DNA from: an uncultured Armatimonadetes bacterium
GTDB lineage: Bacteria > Armatimonadota > UBA5829 > DTJY01
Direction of reading: 5' to 3'
NCBI GenBank assembly: GCA_963717145.1
Contig: OY970325.1
Location: 512,001-576,000, forward strand
Length of the DNA stretch: 64,000 nt
Shown in pieces: positions 28,388-48,398 of the stretch. Position 1 is the stretch's first letter. Each line of letters opens with the position of its first letter. Under the pieces are notes generated by a model, which did not search any database, was not told where the DNA came from, and saw only the letters and a list, made by a program, of their open reading frames with translations. A program made the translations under genes and the position numbers.

Positions 28388-31300
28388 CTAGTTACCACAA
28401 TGCTCGTGCTTTGGCTCCTTCACACACGCTCGGTATTCCTCCCCACAGGATTTCCTGTTGGCTTTCAGAGCTTTCTCATAGTCGTGCTTGGCACTCTTAA
28501 GACAGTCAGCTTCAGGGTCATAGCCCATGAGCTTGCAGGCTCTGTCAGCCCCCTTTGACCAGCTACCATCCGGCGGCAGCCACAACTCACCCTCCTTGGG
28601 CTTGATCTTGCTACACTCGCTCTGCAAGTCCTCCAGAAACCATTTTATCCACGGCCCGCATAGCGCCTTATCCAAATCATAGCCCAGCTTAGCAAGATCG
28701 CTACCGTTCTGGAGGCAACGCGCTTTATCCTTTCCACAGTGCTTCTTCCGCTCAACGCTGTTCGGCGGCCCTTGGTCTTTGCACCATGCATCCGGCGGCA
28801 TAAGCTCAAGGCCGGAAGGGTCCGTAGAAATGGTAGGCTGGTCATCGGTGTACGTATACCAGTTCATCCCATCTCTGGCCGGATCCCTCTGCGTGAACCT
28901 CCCCGTCTCCGGGTCGTAGAAGCGAACTCCGAGTTGTAGCAGGTCGAGGTTGTCATCCTGGTAGTGCGAGTAGTACCCAAGCCGCCCGACGTATTGGTAC
29001 GGCTGCTCGGTCGAGCCGTAGATATGGTACGTGTTTCCCCACGCGTCATACAGGTACACGTCGGTCATGTCGCCGGCGGCATCCGTGATCAGGTGGGTCG
29101 ATCCCAACTCATCGAAGTAGTAGTACAGAACGGGCGGCGCCTCGCCTGAGCCTTCGACCCGCGCGATCAACTCTCCTCCCGGTTCGCGCACGTAGTAGAA
29201 CGAGCCGTCCGCGGGTGTGACCTCCTCGACGACTGCCGGTATCCCCGCCGTCGTGTCATACACGAACTCGGTCGTCGAGTCGTCCTCCGAACTGGTGATG
29301 CTCACCCGGTTCGAGTCTCCATCCCAGGCCATCTCAGTGGGATAGCTAGCCCCGACGTGGGTCACCGATTCGAGCAACTCTGCTGCCGTATACGTGTAGG
29401 TCTTCTGGAGGGTTCCGCCGCTGCTCTTCTGCTGATATAGGCTTCCGCTCGGGTAGTAGGTATACTGATGCTGAGTCGGCCACGTGACGAGCTTGTCGGT
29501 CGCATCATACGTCATCGGGTTCGACGGCGGATACTTCCGGTTCCCGACCCAGTCGTAGTTGTAGACCGTGCCGCTGGCGTTCGCCAGCCGGTTGTTCGCA
29601 TCGTAGGTGTACGAACTCGTCGTGCCCCAGTCCAAGTCTATGTAATTCGGATTCCCCGAGTCGTCTCTCTGCTGGTAGTCGACCTGGCTGATCGCAGTCG
29701 CGCCATCGTAGTGCGTGATCGCCTCTACAAATGAGCGAGGGTCGGTCGCCCCGAAGTCGTAAGTCGTACTCGTGCCGTTCACGAGATCGACTCGCGTGCG
29801 GTTGCCGATCTCGTCGTAGGTATACTTCGCAAGCCAACTGTTGCCCTTATCGACCTCCTTCAGCCAGCCGTTCGCGTAGTAGAGGTAGTCCACATCGAGC
29901 TTGGGGGTGCCGCTCTGCTTCAGGGTCATGTTCGTCTTCTGCCCGAGGGCGTTGTATACATACCCGATCTCGCGGTTCGCGGGCGATGCAGGTGTATAGG
30001 TCACAAGCCGGTCCTGGATGTCGTAGTCGTAGCCGGACTCACCGGTGGAGTCGGTCATCGTGTCCCGAAGCCGGCTTCCGCCCACATATGCATACGTGAC
30101 ATCCGCAGTGGTGATGGTCCCAACAGGCCAGGAGCCATGCTCGTAATCAACCTTCCTGAGACGGTTCAGGGCGTCATACTCATACGCGGTGATCGGTCCA
30201 CTTGTGCCCACTCGCTTGCCGATCAGGTTTCCGACGTCATCGTACTCGAACAACTCGGATGCGAGGGCGTCCTGCCCCTGAGAAACTGCGGGATAGTCGA
30301 TCTGCACGACGCGGTCGTTCTTATCGTACGTGTACGTCGTCTCTCTCACCGTGCTGGAGTCGGAGCGAGTCTTGACCGTCGCCACGTTGCCAAAGTAATC
30401 GTAGGTGTATTCGACAAGCGGATAGGTCTCTGACTGGCCCGTCGTGCTCGTCCATACCTTGGTGACCCGCTTGGCGTCATCGTAGGCGTAGTAGGTGTAG
30501 CGCTCCTCCTCGTCCCTCGTGGAAGTCAGAGTGCAACAAGAGTAGTTCGATTGAGTGTAGACGGTCGGACTCCCACCCGACTTGGCATAGATCGTCTGAA
30601 GCTGCCGCCCCTGGGCGTCGTAGGTATTCCAGATGGTTCGACTGTCCGCATCGGTGGTGCTCAGCACGCGACCCATGACATCGTACTCCGTGTACTCCGG
30701 CGTGTCAACGTATGCGGGGGTCTGGAGGCTGCCGTCCCACCATCGGTAGGTCACCTCTGTCGGACCGGGTTCGAGGCGGGTGTCGTTCATGTAGTCATAC
30801 TTCTTGTAGTACGCGTACGATCCGTCGATGCCTTCGACGGTCTCCTGCGCGAGGAGGCCGATCTGATCGCCGGATGTGTGGTAGCTGTACGTCTTGAGGA
30901 CAGGATCCGTCGCCCAGTTGGCGTCATTGCTGTCCACCTGGATCTCATCTACCCGGTGGAGAGTATCATCATCCCGCACGTAGTGGGTGTAGTTGTCCCG
31001 CACGTTCTTGACGGTCATCGGCCAGAGCGTCATGCTCCCGTCATGCCAGTAGTACTCGTAGCTTTCCGTCGGGATGTCTTCGCCGACTTGCGGATAGGTG
31101 ACGGTGTCGACCGCGCCTGTGGCGTCATGGTACTCGTAAGTCGTCACCCGACCGAGCGCATCCACGACGGCGAAAGGCTTCCCGACCAGGTTTCTTCCGA
31201 TAACGAGGTCCGTATCCACCTCCGCCGAATCAGCGGTTGTCATCCCCTCGAACTCGGCGTCCGTTCCCTCCGGGACGTAGGTGCGGTAGGTCGTGGTGTT

Positions 31301-32926
31301 CCCCAGCGGATCCTCGACCTGCCACAGATAGGTCTTCTTTCCATTGCGCATGAAGAACCGGTATATGGTCGTTTGGTCGCTGTTGGTGCTCGGGCCCTTC
31401 CGCGTCACGGTGGTCACATTGGGGTCATTGGCATCGCCATACCAGTAGACGGTCACTATATCGGGATCCGCCGACTGATCGGTCACCGTGATAGTGTTCG
31501 CCTGGTCGTTGTATGCGTAGATCACCGTATGGCCGTTCTGTGTCACCGCGGTCAGACGCCCGGACGTATCATACTCGTATGAGGTCTGGGAGAGGAGCGT
31601 GGTGTGGGATGTGTCGTCGTAAAGCTTCACCGACAGAGGCTTCTCCGCCGCCCAGCCGCTCATAACATAGGTGATCTCAGTGTGCGTGCCGTCCGGGGCG
31701 GTGACACTGGTGATCTTGGTGTCGCCCGTAGCATGAGTGTATGTCCATGAGTCGTCGTTCGGGGTCTGGACGCCCTCCAGCGCGCCGTTCGCAGCGCGCG
31801 TGAATGTGGTAGTCCGACCATCGGCATCCTCCACCGAAGAAATGCTGGAAACATTCTGGTGCGGAGCGCCGTACTCTACCGTAGCGCCGGTCGAACCGGT
31901 CGAATCCGTCACAGTATAGCCGGTCGTCTGCCCTCCTGACTGGATGCGGGCCAGCTTCGCGGTGAAGCCAAGCTCTATCGGCTCTCCGCCGAAGATGGTC
32001 ATCACGCAGTTCCCGCAGGCATTCCGGTAGAGGGTGTATTCCGTGCCGTTACAGTCAAACGTGAATGTGCCGTCGCCGTTGCCGTTACCGGCGCCATAGT
32101 CGCCACCCGGGCCCGATTTGCCCCCGGCAGGGTCGTTTGGAACGACCGTCCCAATGTTTACCACGCCCCTCCGCAGGTCCGGCGGGACCATGCATCCGCC
32201 TGGGCCGCAGGACCCGCAGCCCCCGCCACCGGTCATCGGGGGAAGATCGTCGCAGGCATCCGTTGGATCCTTCACGGTGACCACAATGGTTTCGCTGCAA
32301 TCACCGACTTCGACTGTGATCTTGTGTTTTCCAGCCGTCCCCCAGCCTTCTTCTTTCGTGTAGGAGACCCCATTGGTCTGTGTGTACACTCCATCTTCAT
32401 ACCAGGCCAGCCAGCTCTCAGGACCGCCATCATTCGTGGTGGCGGTGTAGATCGCCTGCTGGTTCGTACATACCGTGCGGGGACCGTCTATCGAGCCAAC
32501 TCCAACCACCGTAAACGACAGAGTCTCATTCTCATCGTTGTCGTCATAATACTCATCAGTGTCAATCGCAGTTACGTCCAGGTTGACGGGACCGGGGGGA
32601 GGCGTCCACTCACCTGAGTAGACGCCGTCTTCGCCTCTGACTTTCGAACCCAACCATCCTCCGTCGAATTGCAGAGTGTCCATCTTCGGGGTGCCTATCG
32701 GGTGGTCCTCAAAGTAGCAGTCGCAATCATATGCATGCAGAGTCACATCCTCGCCACAGCGCATGTAACCATCCCAGATCGGCCCCGAGAGGCTCAAGTA
32801 GATCGGCTCCTCATCGTACGGGCCGTTGCATCCGCCCGACAGACACCCCGCAAGGACCATAGACGGCGCGCACACGGTCAGGGCGACTGTGGCTGCAATG
32901 AACAGCAGCATAAACCTTGCATTCAT
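28388..32926 (-). CDS. Full-length Rhs/YD-repeat polymorphic toxin with Sec-type signal peptide
   Basis: YD repeats, Rhs-associated core, DPSGL cleavage motif, Cys-rich variable tip, RBS GGAGG. Confidence 0.92.
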   Translation of the reverse strand: MNARFMLLFIAATVALTVCAPSMVLAGCLSGGCNGPYDEEPIYLSLSGPIWDGYMRCGEDVTLHAYDCDCYFEDHPIGTPKMDTLQFDGGWLGSKVRGEDGVYSGEWTPPPGPVNLDVTAIDTDEYYDDNDENETLSFTVVGVGSIDGPRTVCTNQQAIYTATTNDGGPESWLAWYEDGVYTQTNGVSYTKEEGWGTAGKHKITVEVGDCSETIVVTVKDPTDACDDLPPMTGGGGCGSCGPGGCMVPPDLRRGVVNIGTVVPNDPAGGKSGPGGDYGAGNGNGDGTFTFDCNGTEYTLYRNACGNCVMTIFGGEPIELGFTAKLARIQSGGQTTGYTVTDSTGSTGATVEYGAPHQNVSSISSVEDADGRTTTFTRAANGALEGVQTPNDDSWTYTHATGDTKITSVTAPDGTHTEITYVMSGWAAEKPLSVKLYDDTSHTTLLSQTSYEYDTSGRLTAVTQNGHTVIYAYNDQANTITVTDQSADPDIVTVYWYGDANDPNVTTVTRKGPSTNSDQTTIYRFFMRNGKKTYLWQVEDPLGNTTTYRTYVPEGTDAEFEGMTTADSAEVDTDLVIGRNLVGKPFAVVDALGRVTTYEYHDATGAVDTVTYPQVGEDIPTESYEYYWHDGSMTLWPMTVKNVRDNYTHYVRDDDTLHRVDEIQVDSNDANWATDPVLKTYSYHTSGDQIGLLAQETVEGIDGSYAYYKKYDYMNDTRLEPGPTEVTYRWWDGSLQTPAYVDTPEYTEYDVMGRVLSTTDADSRTIWNTYDAQGRQLQTIYAKSGGSPTVYTQSNYSCCTLTSTRDEEERYTYYAYDDAKRVTKVWTSTTGQSETYPLVEYTYDYFGNVATVKTRSDSSTVRETTYTYDKNDRVVQIDYPAVSQGQDALASELFEYDDVGNLIGKRVGTSGPITAYEYDALNRLRKVDYEHGSWPVGTITTADVTYAYVGGSRLRDTMTDSTGESGYDYDIQDRLVTYTPASPANREIGYVYNALGQKTNMTLKQSGTPKLDVDYLYYANGWLKEVDKGNSWLAKYTYDEIGNRTRVDLVNGTSTTYDFGATDPRSFVEAITHYDGATAISQVDYQQRDDSGNPNYIDLDWGTTSSYTYDANNRLANASGTVYNYDWVGNRKYPPSNPMTYDATDKLVTWPTQHQYTYYPSGSLYQQKSSGGTLQKTYTYTAAELLESVTHVGASYPTEMAWDGDSNRVSITSSEDDSTTEFVYDTTAGIPAVVEEVTPADGSFYYVREPGGELIARVEGSGEAPPVLYYYFDELGSTHLITDAAGDMTDVYLYDAWGNTYHIYGSTEQPYQYVGRLGYYSHYQDDNLDLLQLGVRFYDPETGRFTQRDPARDGMNWYTYTDDQPTISTDPSGLELMPPDAWCKDQGPPNSVERKKHCGKDKARCLQNGSDLAKLGYDLDKALCGPWIKWFLEDLQSECSKIKPKEGELWLPPDGSWSKGADRACKLMGYDPEADCLKSAKHDYEKALKANRKSCGEEYRACVKEPKHEHCGN

Positions 32927-35042: not shown

Positions 35043-37734
35043 TCAGAATGACAGCGCTGTGATCTTCACCATGGCGCATCCCCTTCGGAGCGGCACGGTA
35101 AGGCGAAGGACATCGCCCTCCACCTCGGCGTTCACCGTTGCGGGGTGGGGGATGCCGGGATGGAGTGCCTCCACCACGGGATGCTTTGGCCACTCCTTGA
35201 GACTTGACGGCTTGCGGATGGTGACACGGACGCTCTCCGCCTTCCCGCCGAACGTGACCGGAACGATGTAGGCGCCGGGGACCTCGAAGAGGTTCGCCTT
35301 AGACGTCCCCTCGACCTCGATCACGTGCGGCTCGAGCACCCACTTCTTTCCTCGCATCAGGTCGAGCAGCGGCCCGTATTCGAGGTACCACTTGTCCGCG
35401 AACTCCGACGGGCGGATGGTGTGATCGTTCAAGGGGACCGGGGCTGTCGGGAAGACGCCGAGGTGGAGGTGCCGCTGGAAGAAACCGTCAGGGTCGTTGC
35501 CGAGCGCCCATGCCTCGGGAGTCCATGCTATCGCCGGCTTTCGGACGCAGAGGAACGCCGTCCCGTTCAGATAAACACCCTGATGGCCGAACTCATGATA
35601 GACACCATCCGCTTCCCTGAGCAGGTCGAGTCGCATGCTCGTCAACGGGTTGACGAAGATCACCTTGCCGTTGGAGTGCATCAGAGCCCCCAGCTTGCTC
35701 ATCGTGGACTTCCATGATTCGCCGAGACAGCGCATGGGCTTCCCATCGCGCCAGGAAACGCCGTCGTCGGCTTTGCTGTTGTAGCAGTTGAGCCAGTCCA
35801 TCCGGTCGATGCATATCCCCGACGATGCCGGCAGCTTCTCGATGTGACGGCGGGCCTGATCGAGCAGGAAGTTCTGATATGAGGGAACGCCGCAGTCGAG
35901 CAGGATGCTGTTGCCCCAACTCGAGAATTGGCCCCCGGACAGATCGGTCACGATTGCATCGCCGAAAGTGGAGAAGACGTACTTGCCTGGGTCCGACCAG
36001 GGCTTGCCGGGCACGGGCGGAGTGGTGGCGACCGTTCCCACCTCGGTCATGTTGAAGTAGTTCAGGACATGGAAGCCCGCTTCGCGCATCCTCTCGGAAT
36101 AGGCCAGCCATTCGGTTGATGGAGGTATCGTTATCCTTGCCAATCGGCGTGCCGTCTGAATAGAGGTCGAACCTCGGCCACGTCTCATCGTCGCTCTTCA
36201 CGGGAGGGAGAAACATGCCGATGTAGGGGAAGTCGAAGCTCGCCTTCCAGTTCACTCGGAAAGCCATCTTCTTGAACCGCTCGACATCGAGATCGCCCTC
36301 GTAATAGGAGTAGGCCCCACATCCGGCAATGTCATCGGCCTTTGGATTCGGCGGGTTGAAATAGACCGGGTAGCGGCTCACCATCCATCCGAGGCCCGCG
36401 CGCCAATCGGCTTTGTGGGGCACGAAATCGGCCGAGAACGTGACCGGGCTTGCGCGCCCTATGCGATGGTCCGACCTTGCGAACGTGATAGAGCCATCGC
36501 TGCCCGTGCTGAATGACGCACCGAGATAGACGTCCTCAGGGGAGAGAATCAGGCTCAGTCCGGCATCATCGGACGGCATGAGGATCGAGGCGATTGGAAG
36601 GCTCACCATGCCTATGGACATGCTCCGTGCGGCGAACTCCTTCGCGACCAGTGGATCATTCCAGCCTCCGGTCCCCCCGTCTCCCAGTCCCCGCGTCCCC
36701 GTGTCGCTGCCGGGGTCATCCCAGGCGGTCCAGAAGAGCGAGTCCTTCGTCTCCGGCCAGCGGAACTGCGAGATGATCGGCGTGGTCCACGGCCCGCCCT
36801 TGCCGACGATCTCGATCTCCCACCGGATGCTGTTCTTCGTCGGGATGAAGCGCTCGATCACCCGGCACTCATCCCCGGCGATCGTTCGGGCAGGAGTTGC
36901 GGCCCTCGTTCGGGCAGGAGTTGTACTCCTGCCCGCAGCACTGCCTTGGGAGTTCAACTCCCCCTCCAGTACTGCGGGCAGGAGTACAACTCCTGCCCGA
37001 ACGAGGGAGGTTGCCGGGTGAACGAGAGTGCGCTCGAACTCCATACCGCCGTTTCGCAGTACGATAGCCTTGACATCCCCATCCTTGCATCCGAGCAGTC
37101 GCAGTCTGCCCGCAATGGGATGCGTCGCGTTGCCCAGTATGACCGCGCAGACCTCTCCCTTGTCAGAGAGCTTGAGGGTGATCCCCGGGGCACGGACGGA
37201 GTACTTCGCGGTTGGAACAGGCATACTCCTGGGCGTACCGATCAGGACCGCGTCGGCCCAGTCGGCATGATCGCAGGTCGAGCCGTCGCCGGTATCTTCC
37301 ACGACGAGCTTCAACTCGTTCGCGCCGTAGATGGGGACGCTGACCGGCATCGCCGGGGAGTCGATCTTCATGACTCCGCTGGAGAACAGCTCCCGGCCGT
37401 CGGCGTAGACCTTGAAGACGATGCTCGGCTGCTTGTACTCCTTCATCTCGGCATCGACGCCGACGAGGGCCTTGAAGCGCCCATACTGCCCGTCGAGGTC
37501 ATAGACGATCTCGCTCCGGGCATGGGCGCCGAGTCCGCGCTCGAATACCCGGTCGCCGATCTGCAGAGGTTTGCCCTGGACGCTCTTGTTGACTCGAAGC
37601 TGCCCCCATCCCTGTGAGGAGTAGATCGGCCCGAGTGTGTCGAGCCCGATGGTGTCGGCGGCCAGAGGAAGAGGTAACGCCAGTCCGGCCAGGAGAGCGG
37701 CGATGATCAGAATTACGGTAACACTCGTTGTCAT
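35043..37734 (-). CDS. Exported NPCBM (CBM51-like) domain protein with a putative glycoside hydrolase region, frameshifted near 36110
   Basis: Signal peptide, GLGAHARSEIVYDL...DHADWADA NPCBM motif; ORFs 35593-37755 and 35043-36188 join across one indel. Confidence 0.7.
36903..37007. repeat. Nested palindromic element inserted in frame within a CDS
   Basis: Arms contain CGGGCAGGAGTTGTACTCCTGCCCG and CGGGCAGGAGTACAACTCCTGCCCG. Confidence 0.85.
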
Positions 37735-37791
37735 GTTTCCCTCCGAAGCGATCACGTCCGCTCCCCTGCCGACCTCAGTGCTGGAGCAGCA

Positions 37792-40075: not shown

Positions 40076-43000
40076 TCAACGATCACTCAAGCGATCAGTC
40101 GCCGCTGACCTGCTGGAATCTCGCGCCATCGGCGACGACGATCTTACCCGTCGCGCCGGTGCCGTTTCCGAGCTTGAGGTAGGCGCCCGTCCCGGGCCAG
40201 CGAAGTGCTTGCCGGTGAGCAGCGATCTCCAAGCTCCACCGTTCGTCGACTGGTTCCAGGCCACAGCCTGAGAACCGCCGTCCCAGTAGAGAGTGAACGG
40301 CGCGTTGGTCGCTCTGTTAGATCCTTGCGGATACCAGATGTAAGTGTCGAAGTTGCCGGCATAGGAGATGCTCGGCCGCCAGACAGCCGTCTTGGTCTCG
40401 CTGACAGCGGTGCTGGCGTAGTGGTAGTTGGTTAGGTACTTGTCGGCCGATGTGGTCTGAACCGTCCAAGCGCCGGTGAACGTGCACGCCGGGTTATCGA
40501 CAATCGCCTCCTGGTATCCCGGAGTCGTCGCACCAGCGCTCGTGCTCTGCGCCGAGTTGTTCTGGGCCGCGTCATAGGCCGACACCGTGTAGGTGTACGC
40601 AGTTCCGGGCGATCGGCCACCGTCGGAGTAGCTGGTGGTCGCCGAGGTCCCGATCTGTACGCCGCCTCGGAAGACCTTGTAGCCGGTCACGCCAACATTG
40701 TCCGTGGAAGCGGTCCAGGACAGGTTGATCCTCTGCGGACCGACGGCCGTCGCGGTGAGGCCGGTCGGGACCGTAGGCGGAATACCGTCGAGAGTCGTGG
40801 CGCTCGCCTGGGCGCTCTGGGCCGACTGATTGCCCATCGCGTCGTATGCCGCCACCTTGTAGGTGTAGAGAGTGCCTCCCGCGAGCCCGGTGCTCGAGTA
40901 GGAGGTCGTTGCGCTCGTCCCTATCTCGACGCCGTCCCGGAAGATCCTGTACCCGGTTACTCCCACGTTGTCGGTCGAGGCGGTCCAGGTCAGATTGATC
41001 TGGCTCGACGACACCGGGGTTGCCACCAGGTTGGTCGGCACGGTCGGAGCGGAGATGTCCGTCGACACGAGAAGGAATCGCACCGCATCCGCCATGACAC
41101 TCTTCGACACCTCACCGGTACCGTTGCCGAGCTTCACGTAGCCGGCCGTACCTGCGAGGAATCTCTTATTGGTGAGCAGAGTGTTCCACGCGCCACCACC
41201 GGCTGTCTGGTTGGCGGTCACGGTCTGCGAGCCGCCGTCCCAGTAGACGGTGTAAGGGGCCGCCACAGACCGGTTGCTTCCCTGAGGCCACCATCCGTAG
41301 ATCGTGTAGATCGCGGAGATGTCCATGGTCGGACGGAATGTCGCGGTCGCGGTCTCAGTCGCCTGAGTGGTGATGTACCGGTAGTCGGCGCCATACTTGT
41401 CCGTGGTTGCTGTTCCCGTGAACCACGAGCCCACGTAGGTTGCCGCCGGGTTATCAACGACGATATCCGTTGCATACGGAGTTGTCGCCACGGACTGGTT
41501 GCTCAGCCCGGAGTTGTTCCCTGCCGCGTCGTACGCGCTCACCGTGTAGGTGTAGGTCGTGTTCGGCGAGCAGGTGGTATCTGAGTAGGAGGTCGTCGCG
41601 CTGGTGCCGATCTGTGCGGCGTTGCGGAAGACCTTATACCCGGTGACGCCAACGTTGTCGGTCGAGGCGGTCCAGGCCAGGTTGCACTGGGTCCGGGAGA
41701 TCGCCGTCGCCACGAGTCCTGTCGGCGCGGTCGGAGCGATCGTGTCCGGAGTGGTCACGACTGCCGCTGTGCTCTGCGCCGAGTTGTTACTCGCCGCGTC
41801 ATAGGCACTGACCGTGTAGGAGTAGGTCTGTCCTGCCGAGCAGGTGGTGTCCGAGTAGGTGGTCGTCGCGCTCGTACCGATCTGCACGCCGCCTCGGAAG
41901 ACCTTGTAGCCGGTCACACCGACGTTGTCAGTGGACGCCGTCCACGAGCAGTTCACCTGCGTGCTCGAGATCGCCGTCGCGCTCAGTCCGGTGGGAACGC
42001 TCGGCGGAGTGGTGTCTCCACCTTGCGTCGTCACGGGGACGCCTGCTGTCTGAGCGGAGGTATTCCCCGACCCGTCGTAGGCAGATACCTTGTAGGTATA
42101 TGTGGTGTTCGCGGAAAGGCCGGTGTCCGAGTACGACGGAGCAACGCTCGTACCGATCTGGACGTCGTTCCGGTAGACCTTGTACCCGTTCACGCCCTTG
42201 GCGTCGGAGGAAGCGGCCCACGTCAGGTTGATCTGGGTCTGAGACGTCGCTGTTCCCCCCAGACCTGTCGGCACGCTCGGCGCGGTGGTGTCGAAGCCGT
42301 CGTGCTCGGACAATATGTAGTCCACGATCCAGCGGTTGCCGTGGTTTGTCTGGTCGAAGTCCAGCCGGAGCTGAGTGATATGTCCGGCAGGCCAGGTGGC
42401 GTTCCGGCCAACCGGCAGATAGACATCGGCCCAGGCATCCTGCGCGACGTAGGTGACGTGTGTCGACTTGGACTCGCTCCAGGTGCCGTCCGCGCTCGTG
42501 ATCCAGTATAACGCCATGTCATGGACGTTCGTGCTCCCGTTCTGTGGGAAGACACGTACGTGGATCCAGTCGTTGACGCCGCCGAGGTAGTTGTAGGGGA
42601 AGCCGCTGCCGCTGAGGCTGGGGCTCAGGAGAATGGCGTCATTCGCCGTCTGATCGGTTACGAGAATGCCCGGCCATCCGCCTGATGTCTGCCAGGGTGC
42701 CGTCAACGCGTTGCCGGCGTACCAGCCCATGACATCGCCGGCGTTGTCGTAGTGCCACCAGAGCGCATTCTGCAGCACGAAGTGGTTTACGATCCAGCGG
42801 TTGCCATGGTTCACCTGGTCGAAGTCCAGTCGCAGTTGGTTGATCGTCTGTCCCCACCACTTGGCATTGTTGATGTAGAGGTTGACGGTCGCCCAACTGT
42901 TCTGCGCATTGTAGTTGACGACGGGAGTGGACTTGGGCGCATCCCAGAAGTTCTCACCATTGGTCTTCCAGAAGAGCTGCAGGTCATGCGCTGCCGTGTT

Positions 43001-44356
43001 CCCGTTCTGTGCGTAGAAGTCCACATTGACGGTCTGAGGTCCCCAGACTCCGCCAAAGTTCGTGGCGGGGCTGTGAACGTAGGCGTCATTGCCGGTCTGG
43101 TCGAAGTACATCGATCCGTTCCAGTCGGCGCCGGTCCACCAGATCGCCGACGTGCTGTTGCCGGGAGTCCAGTAGTCATTGCCGCCACCGAACAGGTAAG
43201 GCGGATTGTAGTAGGTCGCGCCGTTCACGACTGAGATCATGTAGCCCCAGTCCCATCCGCCGCCTGGATCCCAGTGGGTCCCGCCGCAGACGCAGTTGTT
43301 GACGTCGACGTGCCCGCAGATACCCGGGGGGCAACCGTTATGCGCCTTCTGAATCCCCCAACTGTCGCAGATATCTCTGCACAGGAGTCCGACGGTATCG
43401 TAGAGCAACTGAGGGTGGCTCGGGGAACCGGCGTACCCCTCGTTCTCGATGCCGATCGCGCGGGAGTTCACGCAGCCCGCGTGCCATGCGCGGTACCACT
43501 CATCGACGCACTGCCATACTCCGCCGCCTTCCGATGTCACGTAGTGAGCGGACACCGAGGAGTTGCAGTTCTTGAACCATGAGCGGCATCCTGCGGCCGT
43601 TCCCTCGATAGTGTGGATGACGATGGTATCCTTCGAGGTTGAAGTGGCGGTGTAGTTGCAGGTAGCCGCTGCGTCCCACACGGCTGGACCGTACTGAGCG
43701 CTCATGGTTCCCGCCACCGCCGCTCCAGGCTCGAGGCTCTTCAGGTCCACCGATCCGATGGACTGCGCAGAGAAGCCGAACCCCTCTCCCTGGCTGTTCA
43801 CGTGTTCGAATCCGCGCTGCAGCTTCTGGAAGACTTCCATTGCGAACAGGCGGCTGTTCTCCTCATCCAGTCCCGCATACGAGATGACCGGATGGAGCCA
43901 CGCATCGATGCCGCCATCCCGGTTGATGCCCGCCGCGTTGGCGAACGAACTCAAGACCGCCGCTGCGGCATTGATATTGGCCTTGGGGTCGGTCTTGGTC
44001 GTCTCAGGCGATGCCCCGACCAGGGAAGCGCCTAGAACCAGGGTGTCCGATCCCAGGATATTGTCTCTGAGAGCCATGATCCCGTAGCCGCCCTCGATTG
44101 TGGGCGCGTCTCCCCGGTTCTCAAAGTTGCTTCCGAACCATCCGAGGGTGAGAAGCAGGTCAAGGGGAACGTTGTACTTCTTCGCCGCCGCCTTGAAGAT
44201 CGGGTTCAACTGGGTGCCCATTGCCAGTGGCTTGGCCACATTGGGATCTCCAGGTACTCTGGCGAGAGTTCCGCCCACCTCTGCGAATGCACAGCTCATC
44301 GCTGCGAGCAGGGCAAAGCCCAACAGCAGCGAGATGAGTGTCTTCGATCTTGCCAT
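40076..44356 (-). CDS. Multidomain N-acetylmuramoyl-L-alanine amidase (SLT-like, Amidase_2, beta-sandwich repeats, 5 FN3, 2 golvesin-like domains)
   Basis: Signal peptide, IVIHTIEG, SAHY, AWHAG, GIENEG, HWDPG and ASTDNVGVTGY FN3 repeats. An indel near 40195 suggests the true stop is ~40095. Confidence 0.9.
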   Translation of the reverse strand: MARSKTLISLLLGFALLAAMSCAFAEVGGTLARVPGDPNVAKPLAMGTQLNPIFKAAAKKYNVPLDLLLTLGWFGSNFENRGDAPTIEGGYGIMALRDNILGSDTLVLGASLVGASPETTKTDPKANINAAAAVLSSFANAAGINRDGGIDAWLHPVISYAGLDEENSRLFAMEVFQKLQRGFEHVNSQGEGFGFSAQSIGSVDLKSLEPGAAVAGTMSAQYGPAVWDAAATCNYTATSTSKDTIVIHTIEGTAAGCRSWFKNCNSSVSAHYVTSEGGGVWQCVDEWYRAWHAGCVNSRAIGIENEGYAGSPSHPQLLYDTVGLLCRDICDSWGIQKAHNGCPPGICGHVDVNNCVCGGTHWDPGGGWDWGYMISVVNGATYYNPPYLFGGGNDYWTPGNSTSAIWWTGADWNGSMYFDQTGNDAYVHSPATNFGGVWGPQTVNVDFYAQNGNTAAHDLQLFWKTNGENFWDAPKSTPVVNYNAQNSWATVNLYINNAKWWGQTINQLRLDFDQVNHGNRWIVNHFVLQNALWWHYDNAGDVMGWYAGNALTAPWQTSGGWPGILVTDQTANDAILLSPSLSGSGFPYNYLGGVNDWIHVRVFPQNGSTNVHDMALYWITSADGTWSESKSTHVTYVAQDAWADVYLPVGRNATWPAGHITQLRLDFDQTNHGNRWIVDYILSEHDGFDTTAPSVPTGLGGTATSQTQINLTWAASSDAKGVNGYKVYRNDVQIGTSVAPSYSDTGLSANTTYTYKVSAYDGSGNTSAQTAGVPVTTQGGDTTPPSVPTGLSATAISSTQVNCSWTASTDNVGVTGYKVFRGGVQIGTSATTTYSDTTCSAGQTYSYTVSAYDAASNNSAQSTAAVVTTPDTIAPTAPTGLVATAISRTQCNLAWTASTDNVGVTGYKVFRNAAQIGTSATTSYSDTTCSPNTTYTYTVSAYDAAGNNSGLSNQSVATTPYATDIVVDNPAATYVGSWFTGTATTDKYGADYRYITTQATETATATFRPTMDISAIYTIYGWWPQGSNRSVAAPYTVYWDGGSQTVTANQTAGGGAWNTLLTNKRFLAGTAGYVKLGNGTGEVSKSVMADAVRFLLVSTDISAPTVPTNLVATPVSSSQINLTWTASTDNVGVTGYRIFRDGVEIGTSATTSYSSTGLAGGTLYTYKVAAYDAMGNQSAQSAQASATTLDGIPPTVPTGLTATAVGPQRINLSWTASTDNVGVTGYKVFRGGVQIGTSATTSYSDGGRSPGTAYTYTVSAYDAAQNNSAQSTSAGATTPGYQEAIVDNPACTFTGAWTVQTTSADKYLTNYHYASTAVSETKTAVWRPSISYAGNFDTYIWYPQGSNRATNAPFTLYWDGGSQAVAWNQSTNGGAWRSLLTGKHFAGPGRAPTSSSETAPARRVRSSSPMARDSSRSAATDRLSDR

Positions 44357-44615
44357 TGCTGAATCTCCTTTCGATTGCATACATTGGGTCATTCCTGGTG
44401 GTTGCGCCTCGATGAAGTCTCCGCTCTCTACCCCCCTTCCTGGAGACGTGACATGGGTCGAGGTCTTCTGTGATCAAGATGACCCTGTCTCGGTTGGTGG
44501 CCGAACCAGACTATTCCACCCGAACCTTAGCGGCCACGTCACAAGGCATGGTGGCTGCCTCTGACATGGCGGAATTGTGGATTGGAGCAGTGTTTCTAAG
44601 CGTTCGGGTTGGTTA
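44357..44615 (-). ncRNA. Candidate structured cis-regulatory 5' leader, copy 1
   Basis: Conserved with 46977-47232 and shows compensatory stem changes. Confidence 0.65.
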
Positions 44616-44620
44616 ACATC

Positions 44621-44649
44621 ATACTAATGCGGTGCGCCCCATATGTCAA
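44621..44649 (-). promoter_or_regulatory. Sigma70-type promoter
   Basis: TTGACA-17 bp-TAGTAT. Confidence 0.75.
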
Positions 44650-44721
44650 GTAGTGATTTTCGCGAGTTTCGCGATTTCGTGAACGAATGGAGGACGAGGC
44701 CGCGGGGAGTGGACAGAGAAC

Positions 44722-44758
44722 CGAGGGTCGGCGCTCAATGAGGAACGCCGACCCTCGA
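44722..44758 (-). terminator. Hairpin downstream of amidase 2
   Basis: CGAGGGTCGGCG / CGCCGACCCTCG 12-bp stem; weak U tract. Confidence 0.55.
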
Positions 44759-44789
44759 TCTGTTACCCGAGTGTCTTCCCAGAGGAAGA

Positions 44790-46976
44790 TCAGCGCCGAA
44801 TCAACATGACGGCATCGGCGACCACTACCTTGCCAGTGGTGGTCCAGCAGGAGAGCTTGACGTTAGTGCTCACCGCGGCGAAGTTCCATGTGCCGAGGCT
44901 GTTCCACGTGCCCCCGCCGGTCTGCTGATTCCTGGTGACGATCTGACTCCCGCCATTGTAGTAGACCGTGTACGCGGCAGTCAGAGACCTGTTTGTTCCC
45001 GCAGTCCACCACGCGTAGACCTCATAGTTGTCAGCGGTCGGGATCGTGCAGTTCCACGTCGCCTGATCGCTGGTGGCGGCGGTGGGTCTGAACCGGTAGT
45101 TGGCTCCGTACTTGTCGGGCGCGGAAGTACCGGTCGACCAGTTCGCGGACGCGGTGAACCCGGTCTCGGCGTTGTCTACAATGATAACCGTGGACTCATT
45201 GACAGCCCCGCACTGTGCGGACTCATTGTTGGCTGCATCATATGCCGATACCGTGTACGAGTATGTAGTCCCCTCGGCCAGGCCGGCATCCGGGTAGCTG
45301 AGTCCCGACACGGAGGTCAGATACCCGCCGTTTCGGTAGATCTTGTACCCCGTCACGCCGACGTTATCCGTGGAAGCATTCCACGCGAGGTTGATCTGGC
45401 TCGTAGACTGAGCAACCGCTATGAGACCTGTAGGCACACTCGGAGGCGTAGTGTCCGCCCCGCCGGTGACCGTGATCCACCATGTAACGTCGCCGCCGAA
45501 CCATGTCACGCTTTCCTGGAGCGGCCGGTACTGCTCCGTGTAGTTACCGGGAGTCATTGGCGCTCTGAGAATGAATGTGAACCTGCCGACCTGACCGGTC
45601 GACACAGCGCTCTGGTCGACGTCGCTCGGGCGGCTGCAGGACAGCCAGTTGCCGTTCTCGAAGAACGGGCTGCAGCGATCCTGAGGGCCCTGAGTGCCGA
45701 GCCGTGTGCCGGCATGGCTCCAGGTTGCTGTCCCATCGTTCATGTATTCGGCCCATGCGATCGCGGTTGACCCGGCGACCATCGACGCGGGGTAAGACTG
45801 GCCGACGTAGTGAGCCGCATAGGACGGAGGAGGCGGAGCGCCTGCCACGACGCCGATGAAGTAGCCCCAGTCCCAGCCGCCGCCCGGATCCCAGTGCGTG
45901 CCGCCGCAGTGGCAGGCATTGGCATCGTTGTGGCCGAGGATTCCAGGGGCACAGCCGCGATGCTCTTTGGGAATACCCCAACTGTTGCAGATGTCTCGAG
46001 TGAGCAGTCCGCAAGCATCGTACAGACTCTGAGGGTGACTCGGTGAACCCGCATAGCCCTCATTCTCGATGCCGACAGAGCGGGGGTTCAGACAGCCCAC
46101 ATGCCATGCCCTGTACCACTCATCGACGCACTGCCAAACTCCACCGGCTTCCGAGACGACGTAGTGAGAGGAAACCTGGGAGGCGCAGTTCTTGAACCAC
46201 GACCGCGCGCCGGCCGCCGTTCCCTCGATAGTGTGGATGATGACGGTATCCTTCGAGGTGGAAGTGGCAGTGTAATTGCAGGTAGCCGCCGCGTCCCAGA
46301 CCGCAGGGCCATACTGAGCACTTTCGGCCGAGGCCAGCGCTGATCCAGGCTCCAGGCTCTTCAGGTTCACCGAGCCGATCGACTGGGATGAGAAGCCGAA
46401 GCCCTCCCCCTCGCTGTTCACGGCATCCAGCCCGCTGTTCAGTTTCTGGAATACTTCCATCGCGAACAGCCGGCTGTTCTCCTCATCCAGTCCCGCATAG
46501 GAGATGACCGGATGAAGCCACGCATCGATCCCGCCATCGCGGTTGATGCCCGCCGCGTTGGCGAACGAACTCAAGACCGCTGCTGCGGCATTGATATTGG
46601 CCTTGGGGTCGGTCTTGACCGTCTCCGCGGACTCTCCGATAAGAGAAGCGCCGAGAACCAGGGTGTCCGATCCCAGGATGTTGTCCCTCAGGGCCATGAT
46701 TCCGTAGCCGCCTTCGATCGTCGGCGCGTCGCCACGGTTCTCGAAGTTGCTTCCGAACCATCCCAGGGTGAGAAGCAGGTCAAGGGGAACGTTGTACTTC
46801 TTCGCTGCTGCCTTGAAGATCGGGTTCAACTGGGTACCCATGGGAAGGGGTTTCGCCACACTGGGATCTCCAGGTACTCTGGCGAGAGTTCCGCCCACCT
46901 CTGCGAATGCACAGCTCATCGCTGCGAGCAGGGCAAATCCCAGGAGCAGCGAGATGAGTGTCTTCGATCTTGCCAT
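44790..46976 (-). CDS. Paralogous amidase (SLT-like, Amidase_2, NBR1-Ig-like, FN3, golvesin-like)
   Basis: N-terminal ~380 aa highly similar to the 40076-44356 gene; different C-terminal modules. Confidence 0.9.
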   Translation of the reverse strand: MARSKTLISLLLGFALLAAMSCAFAEVGGTLARVPGDPSVAKPLPMGTQLNPIFKAAAKKYNVPLDLLLTLGWFGSNFENRGDAPTIEGGYGIMALRDNILGSDTLVLGASLIGESAETVKTDPKANINAAAAVLSSFANAAGINRDGGIDAWLHPVISYAGLDEENSRLFAMEVFQKLNSGLDAVNSEGEGFGFSSQSIGSVNLKSLEPGSALASAESAQYGPAVWDAAATCNYTATSTSKDTVIIHTIEGTAAGARSWFKNCASQVSSHYVVSEAGGVWQCVDEWYRAWHVGCLNPRSVGIENEGYAGSPSHPQSLYDACGLLTRDICNSWGIPKEHRGCAPGILGHNDANACHCGGTHWDPGGGWDWGYFIGVVAGAPPPPSYAAHYVGQSYPASMVAGSTAIAWAEYMNDGTATWSHAGTRLGTQGPQDRCSPFFENGNWLSCSRPSDVDQSAVSTGQVGRFTFILRAPMTPGNYTEQYRPLQESVTWFGGDVTWWITVTGGADTTPPSVPTGLIAVAQSTSQINLAWNASTDNVGVTGYKIYRNGGYLTSVSGLSYPDAGLAEGTTYSYTVSAYDAANNESAQCGAVNESTVIIVDNAETGFTASANWSTGTSAPDKYGANYRFRPTAATSDQATWNCTIPTADNYEVYAWWTAGTNRSLTAAYTVYYNGGSQIVTRNQQTGGGTWNSLGTWNFAAVSTNVKLSCWTTTGKVVVADAVMLIRR

Positions 46977-47232
46977 TGCTGAATCTCCTTTCGATTGCAT
47001 ACATTAGGTCATTCCTGGTGGTTGCGCCTCGATGAAGTCTCCGCTTCTTACCTCCCTTCCTGGAGACGTGACATGGGTCGAGGTCTTCTGCAATCAGGAT
47101 GACCCTGTCTCGGTTGGTGGCCGAACCAAGCTTCTCAGCCTGAACCTTAGCGGCCATGCTGCTGACATGGTGGCTGTCAGTGGCACGACAAGAAGGTGGA
47201 CTGCTGAGCATTTCTAAGCGTCCAAGCTGATA
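46977..47232 (-). ncRNA. Candidate structured cis-regulatory 5' leader, copy 2
   Basis: Conserved with 44357-44615 and shows compensatory stem changes. Confidence 0.65.
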
Positions 47233-47237
47233 TCGCC

Positions 47238-47266
47238 ATCATAATGCGGCGCTTCGAGGATGTCAA
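47238..47266 (-). promoter_or_regulatory. Sigma70-type promoter
   Basis: TTGACA-17 bp-TATGAT. Confidence 0.8.
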
Positions 47267-47270
47267 GCAC

Positions 47271-48398
47271 TTATTTTGCCTTTTTCCTCAGCGACAGCCC
47301 ATAGGCTCTTAGCTGCTCTGGGATGTCAACGATATCGGGGCATTCACCAAAGAGGTACGGGGAGCGGATATGACTACTGCCCACCAACCACGTGCCGCAG
47401 TTGTCGCAATAACCTAGTTCTCGATGATCCACGACAGTCGCTGTTCCCAATGCCTCATGTATGTAGAAATCCCCGATCTTCGCCCTACAGTGCCTGCAGT
47501 GATTCATCAGGTATCTTGATCTAACAGTGTGGCTGTAATCCAAGCGGATGTCTATGTGCCAATCACTCCTGAGTATGGTCGCCAGCGTCAGCCGCTTCCT
47601 AGACGGGATCTCGTCTGCTTCCTCACTCTCCGGTTGTATGGTAGCAATGGGTGTGGTACAGCCGCAGTTGTAGCACGAGTAGTCGGCGAGAACCTCCAGG
47701 GCAAAAGGGAAAAGCACTGAACCGCAGGCCTGGCACTGCGCGCGCGGGTCATCAGTAGTAGACGGAATCCGTCCACAGATGGCGAACGCCCTAGCGTGTC
47801 TCTCCATCAGACTCCTTCGCGCAGGACAGGTATGTGCTCCAGCCAATATTGCGGACAGAGTTATGCGGTCGATAATATCAGGTAGTTCCTCCCACGTTGG
47901 GCTGACAACGTAAACAGGCTTGTTCCATTCGCCCATGTAGTATGAAATGGCAGTATCCTCTGGAGCATGAGATACAACAACCTCTATGACAGCATGCGGA
48001 CTGCCGGAGGTATCCTTGAGTAGGATGTCGGGTATCACCGGCCCGATCTGCGTCTCTACCTCGATCTCGCCTGTCTCTACAATGAGATCAATCGCATGTG
48101 TGTCACGACAGTATGGGCACTTGTAGCTGGCGAGGAACGCGGGATGCGGGTTGATCTCAAGGCTTCGACGGAGGGCGCCAGCTATCATCTCTTTCGCGGC
48201 TTTGTGGAGCGCTGTTTCGCCCGAACACCTGCCATCATTGCTGTGAGCGAAATGCCAGATGCGTTCTTCTCCGCGTCTAGCGATCATGGGCTTGCCACAA
48301 CCAATACAGCGGAAGGGTCCGGTGGCACTGATATTATGCACCAGGGCTATCGTGCCATCTGGACTATAGGCTGCAGAATACACCGCCTTCTTCTTCAT
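47271..48398 (-). CDS. CoiA-like PD-(D/E)XK nuclease with multiple Zn ribbons
   Basis: CIGC...HFAH...ETALHKAAK, PDILL...IEVVVSH and several CxxC pairs; lower GC. Confidence 0.7.
   Translation of the reverse strand: MKKKAVYSAAYSPDGTIALVHNISATGPFRCIGCGKPMIARRGEERIWHFAHSNDGRCSGETALHKAAKEMIAGALRRSLEINPHPAFLASYKCPYCRDTHAIDLIVETGEIEVETQIGPVIPDILLKDTSGSPHAVIEVVVSHAPEDTAISYYMGEWNKPVYVVSPTWEELPDIIDRITLSAILAGAHTCPARRSLMERHARAFAICGRIPSTTDDPRAQCQACGSVLFPFALEVLADYSCYNCGCTTPIATIQPESEEADEIPSRKRLTLATILRSDWHIDIRLDYSHTVRSRYLMNHCRHCRAKIGDFYIHEALGTATVVDHRELGYCDNCGTWLVGSSHIRSPYLFGECPDIVDIPEQLRAYGLSLRKKAK

Follow-up and report, generated by a model that had tools for sequence, protein, structure and literature searches.

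A candidate regulatory RNA leader upstream of two paralogous cell-wall amidase genes in an uncultured Armatimonadota bacterium

Introduction

Does the long untranslated leader that precedes each of two paralogous cell-wall amidase genes act as a regulatory RNA? The question is raised by positions 44,357 to 47,266 of a 64,000-nucleotide (nt) stretch of contig OY970325.1 (assembly GCA_963717145.1), which comes from an uncultured Armatimonadetes bacterium; in the following, the window means this whole 64-kb stretch. On the basis of the letters alone, the initial annotation had described a duplicated structured leader upstream of the two genes and had read it as an undescribed regulatory RNA or riboswitch. 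On balance, we consider it likely that the element is an uncatalogued, lineage-restricted structured 5' leader, that is, a cis-acting regulatory RNA inherited together with one subgroup of SLT+Amidase_2 genes in one Armatimonadota family. Of the original proposal, this retains a leader that is structured, duplicated with its genes, without a match in Rfam and with the pairing of two helices (P3 and P4, below) kept in relatives. The riboswitch status is not retained, and no ligand pocket can be defined.

Armatimonadota is a poorly studied phylum. If the leader does regulate, it is one more orphan RNA motif before cell-wall hydrolase genes, a class that has repeatedly drawn RNA-based control, and the P3 loop, P4 and the GCCACC motifs described below make up a defined core with which its signal may be sought.

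Genes, promoters and leaders

The two genes and their expression signals are as follows.

40076..44356, minus strand: gene 1, 1426 amino acids (aa), secreted; SLT-like domain, Amidase_2, 5 fn3 and 2 Golvesin_C domains
44364-44370, minus strand: ribosome-binding site AAGGAGA of gene 1, with the start codon ATG at 44354-44356
44357..44614, minus strand: leader 1 (5' untranslated region, UTR), 5' end guessed
44649..44621, minus strand: promoter of gene 1, TTGACA-17-TAGTAT, sigma-70, 10 of 12 consensus positions
44790..46976, minus strand: gene 2, 728 aa, secreted; SLT-like domain, Amidase_2, fn3 and Golvesin_C domains
46984-46990, minus strand: ribosome-binding site of gene 2, with the start ATG at 46976
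46977..47231, minus strand: leader 2 (5' UTR), 5' end guessed
47266..47238, minus strand: promoter of gene 2, TTGACA-17-TATGAT, sigma-70, 11 of 12 consensus positions

Genes 1 and 2 are paralogs arranged head to tail, both products carry a signal peptide, and protein comparison finds the relatives of these products in Armatimonadota metagenome-assembled genomes. In both genes AAGGAGA sits 7 nt upstream of the ATG (44356 and 46976), and with the starts placed there, the leaders comprise about 258-262 untranslated nt. The initial annotation had placed near-consensus sigma-70 promoters about 260 nt upstream of each amidase gene, and this holds: the distance from promoter to ATG is about 262-265 nt for both, and the region 44200-47400 contains three promoter-like sites against 0.7 expected from shuffled sequences. 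The 5' ends of the leaders are a guess, placed 7 nt past the -10 hexamer, which puts the predicted transcription starts near 44614 and 47231.

Fold of the two leaders

The predicted elements of the two leaders, read in transcript sense, are the following.

44518..44609, minus strand: leader 1 P1, 5' strand 44596-44609 and 3' strand 44518-44530 (RNAalifold, columns 14-27 with 93-105)
44533..44570, minus strand: leader 1 P2, GCCACCA loop at 44549-44555
44487..44511, minus strand: leader 1 P3, GUCUGGUU[CGGCCACC]AACCGAGAC, loop at 44496-44503; the most conserved element of the family
44479..44485, minus strand: leader 1 P4, 5' strand GGGUCAU
44417..44447, minus strand: leader 1 P6, GUCUCC[AGGAAGGGGGGUAGAGAGC]GGAGAC, with the G-rich GGRGGU in its loop
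44396..44402, minus strand: third ACCACCA of leader 1, in the single-stranded joint between P5 and P4
44386..44392, minus strand: leader 1 P4, 3' strand AUGACCC, 29 nt before the ATG
47214-47231 with 47135-47150, minus strand: leader 2 P1
47153-47189, minus strand: leader 2 P2
47112-47127, minus strand: leader 2 P3 core
47099-47105 with 47006-47012, minus strand: leader 2 P4
47051-47060, minus strand: leader 2 G-rich element

RNAalifold predicts 66 pairs for the two leaders together, none of them broken, and five positions that are changed on both sides and still paired (two in the long-range helix P1 and three in P2). P1, which in leader 1 encloses a 25-nt single strand and P2, is an addition to the earlier description. 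The P2 hairpins had been described as having arms that differ but still pair around an invariant GCCACCA loop; the three compensatory pairs in P2 agree with this. Likewise, the multibranch domain described there (GGGUCAU/AUGACCY around CCUCGA/UCGAGG and GUCUCC/GGAGAC) is seen in the minimum-energy folds of both leaders. As read from the sequence, the GUCUCC strand can pair either with GGAGAC or with the GGAGAU of the ribosome-binding site.

A core shared by seven leaders

Seven leaders have a core architecture in common: the two in the window, a third copy in the same genome, the genomic members G001:C8, G005:C30 and G010:C30, and the metagenome contig L120. The third copy (G000:C1:5021413-5021760, with P3 at C1:5021639-5021654) precedes an 1822-aa SLT+Amidase_2 paralog; gene and leader together span G000:C1:5015945-5021760, outside the window, and locus L220 covers 5021100-5022200. 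It is of the G001 type, with a promoter TTGACG-17-TACAAT and a leader of about 345 nt. The protein search scored only 4 of 13 candidates and so left this paralog out; the copy was found through the P3 motif. In four of the five relatives, a promoter TTGAC(A/G)-17-TAxxAT stands at the equivalent position (slightly different in sequence in G005), and that of G010 is weaker (TTGCAG-17-TAGCAT). Across the seven members the promoters lie 215-400 nt upstream of the start, and the ribosome-binding site reads GAAAGGAG.

P3 is common to all seven in the form UUGGYU[CGGCCACC]ARCCRG, with an invariant CGGCCACC loop. Its second stem pair is U-A in the window (UU/AA) and C-G elsewhere (CU/AG), and 98% of the alignment cells in the stem are paired. 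The 5' strand of P4 begins 3-6 nt past P3. The helix closes 21-31 nt ahead of the start codon with its 3' strand, which is separated from the 5' strand by 86-202 nt. The strands read as follows.

Window: GGGUCAU/AUGACCC (copy 2 AUGACCU)
G010: GGUUGUU/AGCAACC
G005: GGUUGUU/AACAACC
G001: GGGUCGUC/GAUGGCCC
Third own-genome copy: GGUUGCCCA/UGGGCGACC
L120: GGUUGUCCAU/GUGGGCGACC

In the chosen register, 96% of the P4 cells are paired and four of the seven columns have changes on both sides. The paired fraction is reached by 22 of 5000 shuffles, and slid registers pair 24-61% of cells; note that these controls flatter P4, because the register of the 3' strand was set by hand for the best pairing. MAFFT was unable to align these strands, and the covariance model described below excludes P4. 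The helix appears in the minimum-energy fold of six of the seven full-length leaders and, for G001, in the fold of the core only.

Inside P4 there are nested helices, capped by a loop that contains GGRGGU (GAGGUG in the third own-genome copy). In each of the three sequence types, this G-rich element is found about 42 nt past the 5' strand of P4, and the intervening sequence differs among them (a manual count on nearly gap-free alignments). Short upstream reading frames lie close to it, which raises the idea that leader peptides do the regulating. Read by eye, an 8-codon AUG frame has its UAG or UAA stop right after the G-rich element in both window leaders (44428-44454 and 47048-47074, minus strand). 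In G001 (L059), L120 and the third own-genome copy (L220), the G-rich element is followed by a UUG frame of 9 codons that ends ..A-T-stop. We find leader peptides hardly credible: the AUG and UUG frames are not homologous in position, neither G010 nor G005 has such a frame (there the UUG frame runs into the main gene), the window frame lacks a ribosome-binding site, and the same nucleotides form predicted hairpins.

Between the window protein and the proteins encoded by the remaining members, identity is only 53-70%, so unconstrained leader DNA should have diverged. This bears on the possibility that the leaders have no RNA function at all, their likeness being due to recent duplication or gene conversion and TGGYT-N8-ARCCA being the DNA operator of a dimeric transcription factor within the transcribed region. 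In a windowed alignment, leaders 1 and 2 are 62-72% identical 5' of P3 and 92-98% identical over the 3' 150 nt, and the first 1.1 kb of the coding sequences are 62-100% identical, mostly 78-96%. High identity thus extends from P3 over the first 500 nt of the coding sequence, the pattern expected of gene conversion; P3 is also a palindrome at the DNA level, and the stability of the folds is ordinary. However, neither a DNA site nor conversion explains the paired changes of P4 across 86-202 nt together with the five compensatory pairs in the diverged 5' half, and the core persists between proteins as different as those given above. We therefore consider the absence of any RNA function very unlikely.

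Repeated motifs and a competing pairing

The initial annotation had counted RCCACCA three times per leader. The count is correct and compares with 0.045 expected in 265 nt (Poisson P about 1.5e-5). In the 5.37-Mb genome there are 11 clusters of at least three RCCACCA, mostly within 265 nt, and two of them are the window leaders. The other nine lie in open frames of at least 161 aa, eight of them in frames of more than 250 aa; the open frames across the window leaders measure 152-158 aa, leaving aside the amidase gene that adjoins leader 1 on one side. CCACC is over-represented in each leader (16 against about 2.5 expected, summed over the seven), and single-stranded GCCACC(A) motifs number 1-4 per leader.

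A second claim concerned two mutually exclusive pairings, in which UGGCCG at the base of the hairpin is also a partner of CGGCCA. RNAduplex supports it: in both copies this strand is the best partner of the P3 loop, at -14.1 kcal/mol in copy 1 and -10.9 kcal/mol in copy 2. In leader 1, the competing strand is the 3' base of P2 (GUGGC plus CG), and its partner is the P3 loop. More generally, GGCCG belongs to the hairpin that precedes P3, where it occupies the 3' base, at an offset from the P3 loop of -32 in the window and -45 or -46 in the G001-type leaders. It is present in five of the seven leaders, against 0.053 expected per 21 nt, and in those five it ranks first or second among the duplex partners of CGGCC in the P3 loop. 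The pairing thus recurs outside the window, in the G001-type leaders.

These features bear on a further reading, a constitutive structural leader without a sensor, in which the folded 5' UTR stabilizes the mRNA or tunes the translation of a highly expressed secreted enzyme. The ompA and aprE leaders are examples of 5' UTRs that work in this way. Consistent with it, the ribosome-binding sites of the window copies are predicted to be mostly open (unpaired probability 0.74-0.82), no terminator is predicted inside the window leaders, and the helices are conserved while the interior is variable. On the other hand, a stabilizer needs no invariant 8-nt loop, no GCCACC repeats and no conserved competing pairing, and the first helix of the window leaders begins about 13 nt from the guessed 5' end rather than at it. 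A purely constitutive role is in our view quite unlikely.

Weight of the evidence

Several results weigh against a conserved regulatory RNA. The initial annotation had proposed that homologous leaders be collected. Five further members and the double changes in P4 speak for its reading, but the single compensatory column of P3 is not significant by shuffling, a palindromic DNA site would fit it too, and the seven sequences amount to about four independent lineages (close kin are the two window leaders, G005 with G010, and the three G001-type sequences). A helix of the length of P4 is not rare in a single sequence (P 0.015-0.80, G-U pairs allowed), and in G010 and G005 another 7-bp partner of P4 scores equally. 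Between lineages, neither the sequence nor the length of the P4 interior is kept, everything upstream of P3 differs as well, and the P1/P2 domain with its GCCACCA loop is confined to the two window copies. Fold stability is ordinary (z -0.52, -1.41, -1.47, -1.49, -1.93 and -3.16), and the window leaders fold little better than shuffled sequence (-1.93 for leader 1 and -1.41 for leader 2).

Natural variation adds a further point. Leader 1 is covered by contigs from soil-metagenome DNA runs that are 94-97% identical to it and differ at 7 to 27 positions; no RNA run is among the matches listed. Among the differences listed, one turns an A-U pair of P4 into A.C at 44391 without compensation, and one changes a U.G pair to C-G.

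With respect to mechanism, GGCCG does not occur in the G010 or G005 leaders, and the GGCCG/CGGCC and G-rich/C-rich pairings allow no covariation test, because both of their sides are invariant. The predicted accessibility of the ribosome-binding site is inconsistent between members (0.06-0.82), and no default OFF state is seen, because the sites of the window copies are predicted mostly open. Finally, the transcription start is known by prediction only, and the transcript and its regulation are likewise predicted.

Comparison with known elements

The covariance models of Rfam 15 were searched at their gathering thresholds, and then at E up to 10 for the leaders and E up to 1 for eight related loci. 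At the gathering threshold there is no match in the whole window. At E up to 10 there is nothing in the leaders, and three junk matches (E 3.9-7) all fall on the probable terminator hairpin, at 44651-44770; at E up to 1, the eight related loci give only two matches to microRNA models, both on a hairpin of locus L044. The search that the initial annotation had suggested identifies no known family, in agreement with its statement that the consensus motifs of the cyclic di-AMP (c-di-AMP) and cyclic di-GMP (c-di-GMP) riboswitches are not seen. In particular, the ydaO/c-di-AMP, c-di-GMP-I/II, lysM-* and M23 models, all of which are in Rfam, do not match the leaders. ARAGORN finds no transfer RNA or transfer-messenger RNA gene over 44000-47500, and the T-box model is without a match in the Rfam search.

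The ydaO fold is pseudo-symmetric, whereas the window leader consists of a small C-rich hairpin and one long nested stem. Another known kind of leader is titrated by proteins through repeated short single-stranded motifs, such as GGA for CsrA, GAG for TRAP and UAG for HutP. The present leaders are similar in that a long 5' UTR displays several copies of one short motif, here GCCACC, within its loops and joints and close to the ribosome-binding site. However, GCCACC matches no known motif of these proteins, and the binding protein is here hypothetical. The genome encodes CsrA, Hfq, a KhpA-like protein and Jag/KhpB. GGA, as in CsrA-type sites, occurs 5-12 times per leader against 4.4-8.3 expected and is not enriched, so that a CsrA-type reading is unsupported even though CsrA is encoded. 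For KhpA/KhpB, no RNA motif preference is found in the available part of PMC13015501.

The closest likeness is to lysM-Actino, lysM-Prevotella, lysM-TM7 and M23, which are orphan structured motifs according to Weinberg et al. 2017 (PMC5737381). Each is an orphan motif in the presumed 5' UTR of genes for cell-wall-degrading enzymes, restricted to one phylum, discovered by comparative analysis and without a known ligand. The window leader differs in that it is much longer, occurs in Armatimonadota and stands before SLT+Amidase_2 genes, and it matches none of the models. Judged from the sequences, the leaders probably make up a small and new family within a known kind of element, namely orphan motifs before hydrolase genes. 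A full-text literature search returned no paper that combines the phylum name (Armatimonadetes or Armatimonadota) with riboswitch, and the same search under Armatimonadota, with non-coding and structured RNA included, gave no match naming the phylum among the matches listed.

The setting also recalls the c-di-AMP (ydaO-yuaA) and c-di-GMP riboswitches, which are cis-acting leaders often found before peptidoglycan hydrolase genes; such genes are a usual site of c-di-AMP riboswitches and of the orphan lysM and M23 motifs (PMC5737381). A small-molecule riboswitch would have P3, P4 and the G-rich element form an aptamer for c-di-AMP, c-di-GMP, cyclic GMP-AMP (cGAMP) or a muropeptide, and the ligand would select between the fold with the closed hairpin base and a pseudoknot at the P3 loop. 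The usual location of such elements fits this, as do the invariant loop and joint nucleotides beside covarying stems, the fixed spacing of about 42 nt between the P4 5' strand and the G-rich element in three sequence types, and the mutually exclusive pairing kept in five of seven leaders. When the core is judged as a riboswitch core, covariation of P3 and P4 and an invariant loop are seen, but only in seven sequences of about four lineages and with a variable P4 interior. That the topology within P4 is not kept between lineages is unusual for a ligand pocket. Furthermore, no known riboswitch model is matched, the element, at 215-400 nt, is very large and has a very narrow distribution, and it precedes one paralog subgroup only and no other pathway genes, which gives no hint of a regulon. 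In addition, identical single-stranded repeats look more like sites for a macromolecule. For these reasons a small-molecule riboswitch seems unlikely.

Proposed function

Under the reading that we favor, a cis-acting regulatory leader, the RNA would set hydrolase output post-transcriptionally, through translation initiation or mRNA life, and would probably do so by switching between two folds. The first would leave the P3 loop free and keep closed the hairpin that precedes it (P2 in the window, PA in leaders of the G001 type). In the second, the CGGCC of the P3 loop would form either a pseudoknot or an alternative helix with the GGCCG at the 3' base of that hairpin. For GUCUCC, the window copies offer two partners, the decoy GGAGAC and the GGAGAU of the ribosome-binding site, and the choice between them might gate ribosome entry. 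The exposed GCCACC motifs could be read by a trans-acting RNA-binding protein or small RNA. Such a trans-acting reader seems somewhat more likely than a small-molecule ligand, and the data do not decide between them.

A more specific version would make the leader a new class of sensor RNA for the state of the cell wall, in which the C-rich CGGCCACC loop docks with the G-rich GGRGGU loop, the GGCCG strand of the upstream hairpin competes for the C-rich loop, and a ligand or a KH-type protein (KhpA-like or Jag/KhpB) reads GCCACC. We regard this version as speculative and quite doubtful. If it were true, the synthesis of a secreted peptidoglycan hydrolase would be coupled to envelope status, in a phylum from which no regulatory RNA is known to have been described.

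Distribution

Genomes of three families in one class carry the SLT+Amidase_2 family in multiple copies. Among 401 genomes of the phylum, 53 match the amidase protein at E 1e-20 or better, and full-length matches occur in that class only. Leader members are found in 4 of the 53 class genomes, all of the window's own family, and in one metagenome contig. All seven stand upstream of paralogs whose signal peptide starts with M/V-x-R-S. In 37 upstream regions taken in the orientation of the gene, the P3 motif GGYUCGGCCACCARCC is present in five, all before M/V-x-R-S paralogs, and the rest are without it. Since the leader is known from four genomes and some soil-metagenome contigs, always before one paralog subgroup, its reach is small.

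A covariance model (R1) covering P3 to the G-rich element in 106 positions was run on the 53 class genomes. It recovers its six genomic seeds (E 7e-23 or better) and nothing beyond them, the next best match (E 0.004) being noise. By blastn, leader 1 has no match outside its own genome among 60 relatives, and in its own genome it matches the two window copies only. Two looser searches yielded candidates that we rejected. A motif search with two mismatches over the 401 phylum genomes gave hit counts seemingly no higher than a reversed-pattern control, and these hits were taken as noise. The exact 16-mer in G007:C109 and the 1-mismatch matches in family genomes all lie in open frames of 141-466 aa (8 of 8) and were attributed to chance.

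For metagenomes, the pattern TGGYTCGGCCACCARCCRG, which ends in RG, excludes the window type (..AACCGA), so that the survey covers the non-window type; the pattern GGYTCGGCCACCARCC plus a downstream GGU would fit the window type as well. The scan gave at least 80 loci (at least 120 stretches), and L120 is the one true member recognized among the matches listed. In L092 and L110 the P3-like motif lies within a short open frame, and the remaining loci among the matches listed were read as matches to coding sequences.

Other paralogs have leaders and upstream sites of their own. Those of L023, L044, L057, L007 and L060 are 250-370 nt long, with strong promoters and long folds, and some contain CCACC-like and G-rich elements; no homology to the present leaders is demonstrable for these five loci. 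In family f4, L004/L049 and L006/L053 have another conserved leader, ACGTAAATTGC ... TGCGCCGATAATGTT, which is distinct from the present one and shorter and precedes the start of the amidase paralogs by about 130 nt. A conserved palindrome, approximately GGTAT-AAATACCTGATTT, lies about 60-70 nt upstream of TATAAT in L016, L061, L043, L014, L046 and L058. Standing before paralogs without the leader, it is a candidate operator, which would represent a different control of the same gene family.

Genomic setting

One further feature lies between the two amidase genes.

44703-44770: strong GC-rich hairpin GAGGGUCGGCG...CGCCGACCCUC, just past the stop of the upstream amidase gene and ahead of the downstream gene's promoter

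This hairpin is probably the terminator of the upstream amidase gene. Among the surrounding genes that were inspected (CoiA_N, GNAT, GH123, FKBP, NPCBM and RHS), none points to a regulator. Large secreted neighbors are encoded on the minus strand at 28388-32926 and 35593-37755; among them are an RHS-repeat protein of 1512 aa and an NPCBM-domain protein of 720 aa. GH123 and GHL10 glycosidases are close by, and the surroundings are rich in secreted hydrolases.

The sequence TCGCGAAA is present twice at 44653-44676, where it immediately precedes the gene 1 -35 hexamer, and is not found before gene 2. At the equivalent position in G001 (L059), just upstream of the -35 hexamer, there is a palindrome, TTTCGCGAAA. 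A transcription factor may bind at these sequences.

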